IMG/VR virus record: IMGVR_UViG_3300045988_071232
Coordinates: 1-5,446 of that record
Source of the DNA: a virus
DNA length: 5,446 nucleotides
Direction: 5' to 3' (one strand)
Shown: piece after piece, positions 567-5,446 of the stretch
Position numbering within the stretch: position 1 is the stretch's first letter
Layout: the number at the start of each line of letters is the position of its first letter
Program-made: the position numbers and the translations under genes
The notes under the pieces: model-generated
Database searches by the model: none
What the model saw: the letters and a program-made list of their open reading frames with translations, nothing else
Told to the model about the DNA's origin: nothing

Positions 567-2258
567 TTAATGATGATCTATTAAACCTGGTATACTAAAT
601 ACAGGCATAGGACGAGTACACAGATTTTTAATATAAAAATCACCGAAAAACTGATTAGCAACAGAAGACGTAACAGCTAACGCACGATCTACATTAGTCT
701 TATCCTCAACGATCCACTCAGGAGAGAGCTTAGGAAGATCAGAATAATCGTCAGCCAAATGCCAAGCATCAAGAGATTTCTTCGATAAAGAACGCATTTC
801 AGCACACACCCTATTAGGTTTGTACCGGTAATCTGCCCATGCTTCTTGATAACCAAAAACGCCATCATCAGCAGCCGTACCTTTTGCAAAAATTTCACGA
901 TTATATACAGGCTGCTCGCCAATATTGGCCAGCGACGGCCAATAATAATCAAAGCGAGTTTTACGGCTAAAGAAACGTTCAATACCGCACTGATACGTAT
1001 GATCATAACGCGCCACACAAAGACCGATCAAAAATCCATGTTCAACGAACGACTGCGTAAAATCCGAATGAGTGTCAACGGTCAAAGAATAAGCGGTAGT
1101 AGTGCCCTGAGGAGTCGTCGCCGATTCAGAATTCTGAACGACCTGATTAACATTAATTAACATACGATTTCCGCCAAGGTACTCCGGGCGCTGGAGCCTA
1201 CTATCAGGGGAAGTAACGCCGAAATGATTAGACAAAATTTCAATATACCTCGTACCACCTCGGGCATCTTTCTCATATATCCTCTGAATTTGAAAAGCCA
1301 AGCGCAATTGATTAATAGTAGCAGCAGTCGCCTGTGTTAAATCCGTCCACAAATTAGAAGGATAAATATCAACACCATCGCCACTATTGCTACCAGCATA
1401 AGTAAGAGAAGAATTATGAAACTTAGCAGCATAATCGCCGATGATAGAAGAATTATCATTAGCATTCCTAAACATCAAAGAAGATGGCTTACCATTAGAA
1501 TCAAGAGACCACTCAGGCCTATGATCATAACTAACTAAATTACCAGTATTACCACCATATACAGGGGCCTGATTACCTAATGGCAATAATACATCAGGAC
1601 CTTTTTGAGGTGATGGAAGACAAGAGGTAAAATAATCTCTAAACTTACCAGCCTTCAAAGGATAACCACCTCTCACGGCCTGAAAAAGACCGGAAGAATC
1701 GTTAGAACCAGCAGTAACATCATCACCTAAAGGAATAGACTGAGGAGTCTGAAGACTTTCATCACGAAACCACTCATTATATATCAAAGCATAAGCACGA
1801 AAAGGAAGAGCAGAAACAGAAAGCTCACCAATATAAGGAGGAATACCCATATAATCGGCTATAGTACCTTCAGCCCAACCGAATTGAGAACTACCACCAC
1901 CAGAACGAACCGGAGAAGTAACCTGAGGAACTGAATACTCGACCTCCGGAAACCAAGGAGCAGAAGTATTTTCGCCCATCATCTCTCGCCAATGCTCCCA
2001 TACCAGACGACAAGGAACGAAAAAATAATACGTATCGAGATAAATATTATCCATCACAGGAGTAACAAGGGTCTGCAAGCGGATAAGCTTAGAAGTATCT
2101 ATCTGAAACGTATCACCAGGAAGAACCTCATCACAATAAAAAGGAATAAGGTCACCAACATTGCCAGAAAGTTTAACACTATGCGAACGATCAAACCTCG
2201 AACGCTGTATATCAACTTGCGGATTTTTAGAAAAATGTGAATTCTGATTCCTATTCAT
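567..2258 (-). CDS. VP1: Major capsid protein VP1 (F-like) of Microviridae/gokushovirus type, 563 aa.
   Basis: The N-terminal signature is ...RSRFDRSHSVKLSGNVGDLIPFYCDEVLPGDTF... The conserved stretch INQLRLAFQIQRIYEKDARGGTRY follows a Ser/Asn/Gly-rich variable loop. SD GGAGG lies 8 nt upstream. There is an 8-nt overlap with the VP3 stop (ATGAATAG). Confidence 0.93.
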   Translation of the reverse strand: MNRNQNSHFSKNPQVDIQRSRFDRSHSVKLSGNVGDLIPFYCDEVLPGDTFQIDTSKLIRLQTLVTPVMDNIYLDTYYFFVPCRLVWEHWREMMGENTSAPWFPEVEYSVPQVTSPVRSGGGSSQFGWAEGTIADYMGIPPYIGELSVSALPFRAYALIYNEWFRDESLQTPQSIPLGDDVTAGSNDSSGLFQAVRGGYPLKAGKFRDYFTSCLPSPQKGPDVLLPLGNQAPVYGGNTGNLVSYDHRPEWSLDSNGKPSSLMFRNANDNSSIIGDYAAKFHNSSLTYAGSNSGDGVDIYPSNLWTDLTQATAATINQLRLAFQIQRIYEKDARGGTRYIEILSNHFGVTSPDSRLQRPEYLGGNRMLINVNQVVQNSESATTPQGTTTAYSLTVDTHSDFTQSFVEHGFLIGLCVARYDHTYQCGIERFFSRKTRFDYYWPSLANIGEQPVYNREIFAKGTAADDGVFGYQEAWADYRYKPNRVCAEMRSLSKKSLDAWHLADDYSDLPKLSPEWIVEDKTNVDRALAVTSSVANQFFGDFYIKNLCTRPMPVFSIPGLIDHH

Positions 2259-2760
2259 TCAAAGTACCTCCATTTCCACTAGACGAATTACCATCGTTAT
2301 TACTGCCGCTATTATTAGAGCTATTAGCTGCCTTTTTCTTAGATCCTTCGGCAGCAGTAAATTTATCAAACTTCTCAAGAAATTCAGGCGTTCCGGCTTG
2401 CCGCCAGAATTCAACAGGGGAATTATTGAAAAGATCTCTGAGTCCGGGGGGTAAGTCATTAAAACTATTCTCAGCGTCTTTAACATACTCATAAATATCA
2501 GCAAGAGTCTTAGGAGAATCAACAATATCCTCATATACACCTTGAACCTTGTTAAGAGCAGTCTCATCACCTTGGGCATAGCGCTGTAAAAGGACAGAAA
2601 GCTCTACAGACTCTCTGTGAGACTGAATCTCCTCATACCTATTATTAACACCAGACACAACAGGATTACCATCATCATCAACGGTATATACTTCATATTC
2701 TTCACGTCCAGACTCACATATAAATCTTTCATGATCATCAAATTGGGTACGATAATCCAT
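2251..2760 (-). CDS. VP3: Internal scaffolding protein VP3-like, 169 aa, with a Ser/Asn/Gly-rich C-terminal tail.
   Basis: Motifs FDDHERF, LQRYAQGD and P.EFW are typical of the gokushovirus scaffold family (Chlamy_scaf-like). The start overlaps the upstream stop as TAATG. SD GGAGG lies 9 nt upstream. Confidence 0.75.
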   Translation of the reverse strand: MDYRTQFDDHERFICESGREEYEVYTVDDDGNPVVSGVNNRYEEIQSHRESVELSVLLQRYAQGDETALNKVQGVYEDIVDSPKTLADIYEYVKDAENSFNDLPPGLRDLFNNSPVEFWRQAGTPEFLEKFDKFTAAEGSKKKAANSSNNSGSNNDGNSSSGNGGTLNE

Positions 2761-2999
2761 TATAAAGTACCTCCATCACAAACAAGCTCAATAGTAGGAC
2801 AAAGAACTATCTCACCAGTAGCAGAATCAAACTCACCAAGCTTATAAAGCTTAAAATCACTCTTATTAGCATTAAACAAAGAGCCTTCGGCCGTTATAGC
2901 ATGGGTAAAATTCCTAACAGCTGTATAATCATTAACGTCCTGAGTAACCTGAAGATAACCCACTTTCTCATCTTTCATAGTATATAAACCATATTTCAT
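2760..2999 (-). CDS. Hypothetical protein, 79 aa (MKYGLYTMKDEKVGY...). Its position is analogous to gokushovirus ORF5/VP5, but no similarity is asserted.
   Basis: The preferred start is the ATG at 2999..2997, with SD AGGAGG 9 nt upstream and an ATGA overlap with the stop of the 33-aa basic ORF. The ORF track extends it to the ATG at 3020, which has no SD. Its stop overlaps the VP3 start (TAATG). Confidence 0.55.
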   Translation of the reverse strand: MKYGLYTMKDEKVGYLQVTQDVNDYTAVRNFTHAITAEGSLFNANKSDFKLYKLGEFDSATGEIVLCPTIELVCDGGTL

Positions 3000-3097
3000 A
3001 ATCTTATTCCTCCTCTCCATTCTCCGGGTTTAACATTAATTTGCTTGGTCTTGCCAGCCGTGCGAGAAAAAACTCTCTTATCTTTACACCTACTCAT
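2996..3097 (-). CDS. Small basic protein, 33 aa (MSRCKDKRVFSRTAGKTKQINVKPGEWRGGIRL), a candidate J/ORF8-like DNA-binding packaging protein. It is absent from the ORF track because it is under 60 aa.
   Basis: Translated by hand from the minus strand. It has 10 Lys/Arg against 2 acidic residues. Its ATG lies 11 nt after the VP4 stop. Its stop TGA overlaps the next ATG (ATGA). A small, very basic J-like protein is expected in Microviridae. Confidence 0.5.
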   Translation of the reverse strand: MSRCKDKRVFSRTAGKTKQINVKPGEWRGGIRL

Positions 3098-3108
3098 TCT
3101 TCTTCGTC

Positions 3109-4137
3109 TCATACTTTACTCCTTTCTTTAAGATGGCCAAGACGATTAATAAGAGTATCCTCCTCTATGGCCAACATTTCCAGATAACTAAGATCTGTTC
3201 TTTTTAACTTATTAGTTTTAACCTTCTCTGCGACAAACTGCCTATTTAATTTTATAGCAGCCATATCAGAAGGATACTCTACGTCATACAATCTATCATA
3301 ATACCTTGGTGGCTTAAAAGATCTACCACCAACAGAAGTTGACAATAAAATCTTATCATAATCATATATCTTATCCTTATTATCATCGTAATAATAACGA
3401 GCAATACCAGGATCACGAGACATACGAACAAAAGGGGGATAAATACCTAAGTCCTCATATATCTCAGAAGACTTACCTTTAAGCTTCTTAGTAACATAAC
3501 GAGCCACATAGCAACAAGTATCCCATGAACACTCAGCAAGAACAGCATGACCACGCTGCTGCCAAGCCTTATCAATAGTAGGAGAATTATATAATATTTC
3601 TCCACGAAAATTAGTTTTATATATCTTAAGATCATTAAGATGAAGACCAAAAATAATAACATGATAATGAGGTCTATGAGTCTCGTCACCATATTCACCA
3701 CAACCAAAAAAACGAATCTTCTGACCTGTATTCTTTCGCAAGCGTTTCATAAAAGAAGAAAGTTCGTCCTTATTAAGCGATACAATAGGAGAGGGGACTA
3801 TCTCTCCGGTATCACAATTTACAAGTTCATGACGATCAGGAAGATGATCATCATCATAAGTTAAAGTTAAGAACCAATTCTCATCATGATACTGAGCTTC
3901 AAGCATGCAACGATTAGCCCAGTCACGAGCATACTGCAAACGACATTCAATACACTGTCCGCAAGGAATTTCAATAAATTCAGAAACGTAATCACCGAAA
4001 GGAACACCTTGCAGAGCATGCCAATGATCACCATCAAAGCGAACAAAATCAATAGCATATGAAACAATCTTATATTTAGGTTTACCAGAATCAGGCCAAA
4101 TACCTACAGGAAAACCTTTTAAAGGATGTTTACACAT
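3109..4137 (-). CDS. VP4: Replication initiation protein VP4 (rolling-circle HUH endonuclease), 342 aa from the ATG at 4137. The ORF track used a TTG at 4167.
   Basis: The N-terminus reads MCKHPLKGF, and a Cys cluster CGQCIECR is present. The motifs are FLTLTYDD (motif 1), HYHVIIFG (HUH motif 2) and CCYVARYVTKK (catalytic Tyr pair, motif 3). Stop is TGA at 3111..3109. Confidence 0.92.
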   Translation of the reverse strand: MCKHPLKGFPVGIWPDSGKPKYKIVSYAIDFVRFDGDHWHALQGVPFGDYVSEFIEIPCGQCIECRLQYARDWANRCMLEAQYHDENWFLTLTYDDDHLPDRHELVNCDTGEIVPSPIVSLNKDELSSFMKRLRKNTGQKIRFFGCGEYGDETHRPHYHVIIFGLHLNDLKIYKTNFRGEILYNSPTIDKAWQQRGHAVLAECSWDTCCYVARYVTKKLKGKSSEIYEDLGIYPPFVRMSRDPGIARYYYDDNKDKIYDYDKILLSTSVGGRSFKPPRYYDRLYDVEYPSDMAAIKLNRQFVAEKVKTNKLKRTDLSYLEMLAIEEDTLINRLGHLKERSKV

Positions 4138-4138
4138 T

Positions 4139-4309
4139 TTAAAAACCTTCGAAAACTTCTTCAACAAGATAAAAATCTATACCACGATCAGATGCAGCTT
4201 CATCAAGATCAGCATAAAAATCATCAGAAGCAACGTCATAATCACTATAAAAGTGAAAAGTTATATAATCATCTTTATACACATCATACAAACTAACAAG
4301 ATAATCCAT
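4139..4309 (-). CDS. Small highly acidic Asp/Tyr/Phe-rich protein, 56 aa (MDYLVSLYDVYKDDYITFHFYSDYDVASDDFYADLDEAASDRGIDFYLVEEVFEGF). It is absent from the ORF track because it is under 60 aa.
   Basis: Translated by hand. SD GAGGTG lies 5 nt upstream of the ATG at 4309. Stop TAA at 4141..4139 ends 1 nt before the VP4 ATG. It has about 16 Asp/Glu against 2-3 basic residues. Confidence 0.5.
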   Translation of the reverse strand: MDYLVSLYDVYKDDYITFHFYSDYDVASDDFYADLDEAASDRGIDFYLVEEVFEGF

Positions 4310-4398
4310 AATAACACCTCATAGCCGGAAAAAACGGCAAAATTCATATTAATAATATACGCTATAAACGTTTAATAAGTGTTTTAAATTCAATAAAT

Positions 4399-4427
4399 AT
4401 TTTAATATTATTCTAAAATAAATACAA
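4399..4427 (-). promoter_or_regulatory. Candidate sigma70-like promoter for the acidic-ORF/VP4 operon: -35 TTGTAT (4427..4422), 17 nt, -10 TAAAAT (4404..4399).
   Basis: The hexamers and spacing were read on the minus strand in the AT-rich intergenic region just downstream of the terminator-like hairpins. The AT-rich context makes chance matches likely. Confidence 0.3.
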
Positions 4428-4528: not shown

Positions 4529-5137
4529 CTACTTTTTAAATAAAGAACTAATAAAGTTCGCAAAAGGTTGACCAATATACTTCTGATAACCTTGATATAC
4601 TGAACCAAGCAAGGAGAAAGGACTTGAAGGAAAGTCACGCTTACTTGCATAAGACTTATTAGAAGCATACCGGGAAGCACTACTCGAAAGCGTTGAACCT
4701 AAAATAGAAGCGACGGAGCTACGATCTGCACCATACCGGGAAGCAGCAGCGCTCATAGAAGCAGAACCGAGCATAGCATTAGCACTAATCTGTGCGGCAT
4801 TAATCTGTGTAGCAGAAGAAATAAGAGACTGGAGATAACCAGCTATAGCAGAAGAATAAGACTCATCAACTTTACCAGATTTACCGGTAGCGGTGGCACC
4901 GGAAGGAGTAGCAGCTCCTTGTCCACCGGTAGATAAAATAGGGTTAAGACCGGCGGCGATCAAGTCTTTAACCTCTCTTTGATGGGCCGTATTGGACATA
5001 TTCTCTTGCCAAGAACGAGTAAGAGCAGCCTGTTCAGCATTAAAAGCCATCTCCTCACGTGCGAAAGCCTGAGACTGCGCCGTATTCGCTGCAGAGCTCT
5101 CTTTGATGGAATTAAGTAAATCGTCATACATTGCCAT
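4529..5137 (-). CDS. VP2: Minor capsid / DNA pilot protein VP2, 202 aa.
   Basis: The conserved N-terminal region reads ...AFNAEQAALTRSWQENMSNTAHQREVKDLIAAGLNPILS. A long Ala/Ser/Gly-rich low-complexity region follows. SD GAGGTG lies 5 nt upstream of the ATG at 5137. Stop is TAG at 4531..4529. Confidence 0.82.
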   Translation of the reverse strand: MAMYDDLLNSIKESSAANTAQSQAFAREEMAFNAEQAALTRSWQENMSNTAHQREVKDLIAAGLNPILSTGGQGAATPSGATATGKSGKVDESYSSAIAGYLQSLISSATQINAAQISANAMLGSASMSAAASRYGADRSSVASILGSTLSSSASRYASNKSYASKRDFPSSPFSLLGSVYQGYQKYIGQPFANFISSLFKK

Positions 5138-5223: not shown

Positions 5224-5418
5224 TCATAGTAGGAGCAGCAGCAGGATCAAGGCCATGACGCTCAAAAAAAGAGGTATATAAGCGTTAAACCAAGCGCAAA
5301 CGTCGCTAACATCCAAACTGATGTGAAAACCTTCAAAAGTATAATAACGGCAGAAGATGGAGTCCTCCATCTCCTGCTGAACTTCATCAAGAAATTCAAA
5401 AAACAAATCATTATTCAT
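5224..5418 (-). CDS. Hypothetical C-tail-anchored membrane protein, 64 aa from the ATG at 5418. It has an acidic N-terminal domain and a C-terminal hydrophobic segment AWFNAYIPLFLSVMALILLLLLL ending at the stop codon.
   Basis: The ORF spans the circular junction, and its start lies in the terminal repeat (equivalent to 67..65). SD GAGGT lies 6 nt upstream. Stop TGA is at 5226..5224. The ORF track's first M is a TTG. Confidence 0.5.
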   Translation of the reverse strand: MNNDLFFEFLDEVQQEMEDSIFCRYYTFEGFHISLDVSDVCAWFNAYIPLFLSVMALILLLLLL

Positions 5419-5446
5419 CAAAATACCTCAAAAGCCTAAAAAAAAC
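5352..5446. repeat. Second copy of the terminal redundancy (= 1..95).
   Basis: Exact 95-nt identity with the window start. Confidence 0.9.

Follow-up and report, generated by a model that had tools for sequence, protein, structure and literature searches.

The closest described counterparts of the gene analyzed here are the VP8 (or ORF8) genes of gokushoviruses such as EC6098, phiMH2K, Chp2, and SpV4, the product of which has been presented as an Arg/Lys-rich analogue of protein J of phiX174 (PMC11281519) and as the product of a conserved core gene linking the gokushoviral subfamilies (PMC9239249). In the capsid of SpV4, residues 9-38 of VP8 line the interior with the N-terminus pointing towards the DNA, and a hydrophobic pocket of VP1 near the two-fold axis takes up the C-terminal residue; in the phiEC6098 capsid, deposited as 8DES, VP8 is found on the inside in the same orientation, its C-terminus buried in VP1 and its basic N-terminus directed at the DNA. 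Only the last 10 residues of EC6098 VP8 are ordered, and the last four are structurally conserved even with phiX174 J (PMC11281519). VP8 and J are described as proteins that bind single-stranded DNA and replace the internal scaffold upon genome packaging (PMC11980548).

The window, by which we mean the whole stretch of 5,446 nt that was analyzed, begins and ends with the same 95 nt (positions 1-95 and 5352-5446), an exact terminal direct repeat, and thus represents a complete circular gokushovirus genome, circularly closed in the assembly, with a true length of 5351 nt plus the 95-nt overlap. All its sizeable ORFs lie on the minus strand in the order VP2-VP4-small ORF-VP5-VP3-VP1, as follows:

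4529-5137, minus strand: VP2-like pilot protein, from a PHROG match
3109-4137, minus strand: VP4 replication initiator (PHROG 942, E=1.8e-118; Pfam PF23343)
2996-3112, minus strand: VP8 (ORF8) coding sequence, 38 codons plus TGA, from the ORF list, PHROG 10695, profile searches, and dN/dS
2760-2999, minus strand: VP5 (Pfam Phage_ORF5), 79 aa from ATG 2999
2251-2760, minus strand: VP3 scaffold (Pfam Chlamy_scaf)
567-2258, minus strand: VP1 capsid protein (Pfam Phage_F)

For VP4, which begins at TTG 4167 in the ORF list (3109-4167), ATG 4137 (MCKHPLKG...) is the likelier start. A megablast comparison of the whole window with phages recovered short stretches of VP1 and VP4 only and no close annotated genome, while a promoter and terminator scan of positions 2600-4400 stayed at the level of shuffled sequence, and we claim no internal promoter. 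Three further small ORFs of the minus strand deserve mention. An acidic one of 56 aa at 4139-4309, ending 1 nt before the VP4 ATG at 4137, is preceded by a GAGG site of its own, and its conservation in four relatives (L004-L007) amounts to 95-100%; family scans against PHROG and Pfam gave no match for it. Downstream of VP1 there are two more, 85-303 (72 aa) and 287-478 (63 aa), each with a GGAG-type site and 82-96% conserved in close relatives, which had no significant family match in the same scans and are probably lineage-specific accessory genes.

Our analysis concerns the small ORF between VP4 and VP5, in which an earlier note, made from the sequence alone, had seen a candidate J/ORF8-like DNA-condensing protein of 33 aa. 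The peptide in question, MSRCKDKRVFSRTAGKTKQINVKPGEWRGGIRL, is indeed encoded by the minus strand at 2996-3097 (the earlier note gave no strand); its computed net charge agrees with the +8 that had been estimated, and on that strand 11 nt separate the VP4 stop codon (3109-3111) from ATG 3097, as described. The existence of the ORF thus stands, but its boundary does not, since the frame remains open upstream to ATG 3112 and gives a product of 38 aa, MRRRRMSRCKDKRVFSRTAGKTKQINVKPGEWRGGIRL. With 14 basic and 2 acidic residues this product has a net charge of +12, a pI of about 12 (12.0), and a mass of 4.56 kDa, so that its length, Arg/Lys richness, and pI all fall within what is typical of the VP8 family (about 36-44 residues, pI about 12). 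The small ORF is a real gene, an ordinary copy of VP8 belonging to a family of arginine- and lysine-rich proteins packed with the genome.

Several lines of evidence carry this identification. PHROG 10695 matches the product over its full length (residues 1-38) with E=2.1e-8, and tblastn against 50,697 phage records finds VP8 matches in 596 of them at E<=0.01 and in 897 at E<=10, all of these records being Microviridae without exception. More telling is a profile built independently, with both the window's own clade and EC6098 left out, against which the ORF of the window scores 56.4 bits, followed by ORF8 of phiMH2K (47.3), VP8 of EC6098 (44.8), and ORF8 of Chp2 (42.8); VP8 of SpV4, read with genetic code 4, scores weakly at 6.4 bits, and J of phiX174 obtains -0.7 bits, that is, no homology detectable in sequence. 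These scores make the ORF a genuine member of the VP8/ORF8 family of gokushoviruses and only a functional analogue of J. The earlier proposal is therefore borne out in a stronger form than it was made, the protein being a sequence homologue of ORF8/VP8, while the J half of the comparison survives as functional analogy only.

Structural databases agree with this picture. A single-sequence search of the PDB returned one chain, 8DES_E, a "Putative DNA binding protein" of 39 aa, with a marginal E-value of 0.026; it aligns end to end with VP8 and has an identical RGGIRL tail. A profile search gave E=5e-13 for the same chain, a value that is partly circular with an EC6098-identical sequence in the alignment; when the EC6098-like sequence was removed and the clade of the window kept, EC6098 VP8 scored 45 bits, with E=6.5e-11 at the search-space size of the PDB. 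In these PDB searches 8DES_E was the sole chain returned, the VP8 chain of SpV4 not being among the matches. The Pfam scan placed VP8 in no family at E<=1, and NCBIfam matched neither VP8 nor VP5. Among representative proteins, a single-sequence search with E-values scaled to 1.8 billion proteins produced 20 matches at E<=0.001, which are 37-69 aa long and aligned end to end, except for one. The exception, the top match P0001 (1842 aa, four repeats), was rejected as an artefact: it derives from contig CATQJL010000275.1 of GCA_958299035.1 (L091:1-17101), where a microvirus genome of 5098 nt is repeated in tandem about 3.35 times within a genome assembly, and it is a spliced gene model fusing pieces of VP4, VP8, VP3, and VP2.

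In a 40-member alignment of the family, positions R3, N26, R33, G34, G35, and R37 are invariant and F15 is nearly so. The family tail has the form RGG-[IWF]-R-[LF] directly before the stop codon, and the window conforms with RGGIRL followed by stop, encoded as follows:

2999-3016, minus strand: codons of the RGGIRL tail, the capsid-anchor motif of the family, with invariant R33, G34, G35, and R37

Considering this evidence together, we regard it as very probable that the ORF at 2996-3112 on the minus strand is the gokushovirus VP8/ORF8 gene, encoding a strongly basic protein of 38 residues which, by analogy with its homologues, would reside inside the virion.

The distribution and variation of the gene were followed in relatives that had been chosen by VP4 alone, a choice which is blind to the small ORF. 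The closest are three IMG/VR contigs (L004-L006) with VP4 proteins 95-98% identical to that of the window, and the VP8 frame is open in all of them; the in-frame stop codons that would have spoken against a gene were looked for in these close relatives and none was found, nor does the window contain a second VP8-like ORF elsewhere. Among the window and these three contigs, 14 of the 18 variable sites of VP8 fall at third codon positions, 11 of the 15 variable codons are purely synonymous, and dN/dS ranges from 0 to 0.11 over the six pairs (0.06-0.08 for two of the three pairs involving the window), whereas the other two frames across the gene both contain stop codons. This pattern of substitution points clearly to purifying selection on the VP8 frame. 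As side observations on the sequence, Cys9 (3086-3088) of the window is replaced by Arg in its three closest relatives, and Trp32 (3017-3019) is shared with the same three and with P0002, the residue being Met in 26 of the 40 aligned family members.

On a wider scale, an HMM search of stop-to-stop ORFs in 84 sources (the window, 80 loci selected by VP4, and 3 GenBank loci) detected one clear VP8 homologue on the coding strand in 62, nearly all of 36-41 aa, and two weaker candidates besides (L032 and L033). The sources without a homologue are loci cut off beside VP4, the clade L035-L053, and a few others, for example, L016 and L022. Within that clade, the retrieved DNA of L035-L038, L041, L043-L047, and L051-L053, with VP4 at about 36% identity, has no recognisable VP8, which may lie elsewhere, have diverged, or have been replaced. 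In 11 of these 13 loci we observed upstream of VP4 merely a 28-aa ORF that lacks an RGG tail and shows only a weak resemblance ("KTRAINV").

Where does translation of VP8 start? Three elements around the 5' end of the gene are pertinent:

3119-3124, minus strand: AAGGAG ribosome-binding site, 6 nt upstream of ATG 3112, within the 3' end of VP4
3109-3112, minus strand: ATGA overlap of the VP4 stop TGA (3109-3111) and the VP8 ATG (3110-3112), read from the sequence
3095-3097, minus strand: internal ATG (Met6), most likely a plain internal codon

Most likely, translation begins at ATG 3112 and yields the 38-aa protein. The same ATGA overlap between VP4 stop and VP8 start recurs in L003-L006 and is annotated likewise in Dulem virus 117. 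A GGAG/GAGG motif lies 5-9 nt upstream of seven of the eight starts in the window that we took as genuine (VP2, orf56, VP8, VP5, VP3, VP1, orf63, and orf72, the TTG-initiated orf65, for which an upstream GAGG is listed, being left out of the count); ATG 4137 of VP4 is preceded only by a weak GAAGG. The best surviving alternative is that the product is instead the 33-residue peptide from ATG 3097, or that both forms are made. This ATG is present and conserved in L004-L006 and Met is common across the family at the position of Met6, but no Shine-Dalgarno motif precedes it, whereas AAGGAG stands 6 nt ahead of 3112. Moreover, codons 2-4 vary among close relatives only by AGA/AGG, CGA/CGT, or Arg/Lys exchanges and hence are under coding constraint; PHROG 10695 and the family alignment span residues 1-38, with members of 36-41 aa aligned from residue 1; and Met6 gives way to Val, Leu, or Ile in many homologues, as expected of a conserved hydrophobic residue rather than of an initiator. 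With Dulem virus 117 also annotated from the equivalent ATGA-overlap start, we consider a 33-residue product, alone or alongside the longer one, very unlikely.

The opposite end of the gene is intertwined with the start of VP5, for which the ORF list gave an 86-aa frame and the earlier note had argued for a shorter one:

3009-3014, minus strand: AGGAGG, putative VP5 ribosome-binding site, formed by the codons of VP8 Arg33-Gly34-Gly35
2996-2999, minus strand: ATGA overlap of the VP8 stop (2996-2998) and the VP5 ATG (2997-2999), read from the sequence

The overlap is present as it had been described, the TGA stop sharing its letters with the downstream ATG, and AGGAGG is located 9 nt upstream of ATG 2999, in keeping with the idea that it serves that start. 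Profiles, the starts of relatives, substitutions, and spacing all favor the VP5 start at 2999 (79 aa) over that at 3020 (86 aa), as had been argued. The conserved element could, in principle, be the 86-aa VP5 itself, with the conservation of the 3' part of VP8 reflecting an N-terminal extension (MERRNKI) of its neighbor. It is true that ATG 3020 shares the reading frame of VP5 and is conserved in L004-L006; however, the VP5 profiles align only further downstream, position 1 of PHROG 1670 to Met8 of the 86-aa ORF and Pfam PF20577 from residue 12, and in L001, L025, and MG945728 the ATGA overlap with the VP8 stop is the only in-frame start that VP5 has. The constraint on the extension, which it had been suggested to check, gives a concordant answer: the sole substitution in its 21 nt, GGA to GGC, is silent for VP8 but changes Asn to His in the extension. 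The GGAGA ahead of ATG 3020 stands at zero spacing, and a VP5 extension would account for only 21 of the 117 nt of the small ORF. An 86-aa VP5 is thus unlikely, and the notion that it explains the conservation of the small ORF is more improbable still than the 33-residue product.

The view that the ORF arose by chance, or is a spacer for translational coupling without a functional product, is effectively refuted despite the shortness of the ORF, its position between two ATGA junctions, and the fact that about half of the database records leave it unannotated, for dN/dS ranges from 0 to 0.11 and most variable sites are third codon positions, the protein is conserved in sequence across hundreds of genomes and homologous to one resolved inside a capsid, and it is conserved also where it lies upstream of VP4 (48 of 62 sources), hence independently of the VP4-VP5 junction. 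We considered also a lysis or membrane peptide and rejected it, as VP8 has no hydrophobic stretch.

The gene has one of two positions with respect to VP4. In 48 of the 62 sources VP8 is found just upstream of VP4, as in Chp2, EC6098, and phiMH2K, while the window and 13 other sources have it after VP4 and before VP5, an arrangement (VP4-VP8-VP5) that annotated GenBank genomes already show. The ATGA junction between the VP8 stop and the VP5 start is present also in OM869545, MG945728, L001, and L025; in the latter two the RGG codons would likewise provide the VP5 ribosome-binding site. In L008-L013, RGG codons of the GGAGG/GGGGG type precede a TTGA junction, with VP5 detectable only in L008. 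Wherever VP8 precedes VP5, the RGG codons, AGAGGAGG or CGTGGAGG, appear to form the VP5 site, next to an ATGA or TTGA overlap. One possible account, to which we would give somewhat less than even chances, is that in a gut lineage VP8 moved from upstream of VP4 into the VP4-VP5 junction, where it became chained to its neighbors by ATGA overlaps and the Arg-Gly-Gly codons of its anchor (AGAGGAGG) came to double as the ribosome-binding site of VP5. If this were true, a structural motif of a protein would be under mutual constraint with a translation signal, and production of VP4, VP8, and VP5 would be linked.

How the protein most likely works can be sketched from its homologues in EC6098 and SpV4 and from the analogy with phiX174 J. 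About 60 copies of VP8 would accompany the single-stranded genome into the procapsid. The invariant RGGIRL tail would plug into a hydrophobic pocket that VP1 presents on its inner face, and the N-terminal two thirds of VP8, rich in Arg and Lys, would bind the DNA backbone, neutralizing part of its charge and tethering the genome to the shell. Assuming 60 copies at a net charge of +12, the resulting +720 would neutralize about 13% of the 5351 phosphates. Expression would be chained from VP4 through VP8 to VP5 by the two ATGA overlaps, the AAGGAG of VP8 itself, and the RGG codons serving as the AGGAGG of VP5. What the sequences themselves document is the ORF with its homologues, the selection on it, its neighbors, and its start signals; the place of the protein in the virion, its copy number, its binding to DNA, and the coupling of translation are predictions of this scheme, and the role of the RGG codons as VP5 site, read from motif and spacing, is likewise putative.

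What emerges is a known core gene, represented in the window by an ordinary orthologue. In this respect the novelty that the earlier note implied falls away, VP8 having already been recognized as a core gene of gokushoviruses (PMC9239249, PMC11281519), whereas its remark that annotations often omit the gene proves accurate for roughly half of the records. Of 60 records sampled at even spacing from the 596 matching ones, 18 have a "DNA binding protein" and 11 a "hypothetical protein" at this place and 31 no CDS, counts which are approximate because any feature overlapping the VP8 match was listed. Sigmofec virus OM869545, bajarodmic virus 1118, and Dulem virus 117 are among the genomes that carry, in the same slot, a CDS of 37-52 aa labelled "DNA binding protein". 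The labels of the families are crossed: PHROG 10695, which is VP8, is given as "unknown function", and PHROG 1670, which is VP5, as "DNA binding protein", so that automated pipelines can mark the wrong gene as DNA-binding. In GenBank both Chp2 ORF8 and EC6098 vp8 go by the name of "nonstructural protein", although VP8 has been seen in capsids. Labels of the "unknown function" or "nonstructural" kind predate or ignore the cryo-EM data. ORF callers with a floor of 60 aa miss VP8 altogether, which constitutes a systematic gap. The proper annotation for the window is VP8, DNA-binding and packaging protein, 2996-3112 on the minus strand, with VP5 starting at 2999. This is a routine correction for a known family, of practical value, and changes no open biological question.

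Compared with known systems, the most distant resemblance is to J of phiX174. The J protein encoded in the phiX174 record has 38 aa, 12 of them basic, and shows a Gly-Gly pair shortly before a hydrophobic C-terminus (VGGQQF in J vs RGGIRL in VP8); the proposed role would be the same, with about 60 copies inserting their C-terminus in a pocket of the coat protein and laying their N-terminus on the DNA. In contrast, the J gene lies between D/E and F, and structural conservation is confined to the last four residues (PMC11281519). The small basic peptide of the window does have a hydrophobic C-terminal anchor as J has, a functional resemblance rather than membership of the same family. Much closer are the reference VP8/ORF8 proteins of Gokushovirinae (EC6098, phiMH2K, Chp2, and SpV4), which have 38-44 aa vs 38 in the window, 12-19 basic residues, and net charges of +12 to +19 vs +12 here. 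They share with the window the Phe near residue 15, Asn26, and the C-terminal RGGIRL/F tail, and their genes likewise adjoin VP4 on the same strand in a genome of the VP1-VP2-VP3-VP4-VP5 type. The differences are that VP8 is upstream of VP4 in Chp2, EC6098, and phiMH2K but between VP4 and VP5 in the window and, to a minor extent, that the window has Cys9 and a Trp32 instead of Met. Close as well are the annotated proteins of Dulem virus 117 (XCD04167.1), bajarodmic virus 1118 (XHH72355.1), and Sigmofec virus (UPW41110.1), which are 59-63% identical to the VP8 of the window over the full length and are encoded in the same order, Rep-DNA binding protein-nonstructural protein VP5-scaffold. These "DNA binding protein" genes are orthologues in sister lineages, with no difference of substance from the gene described here.
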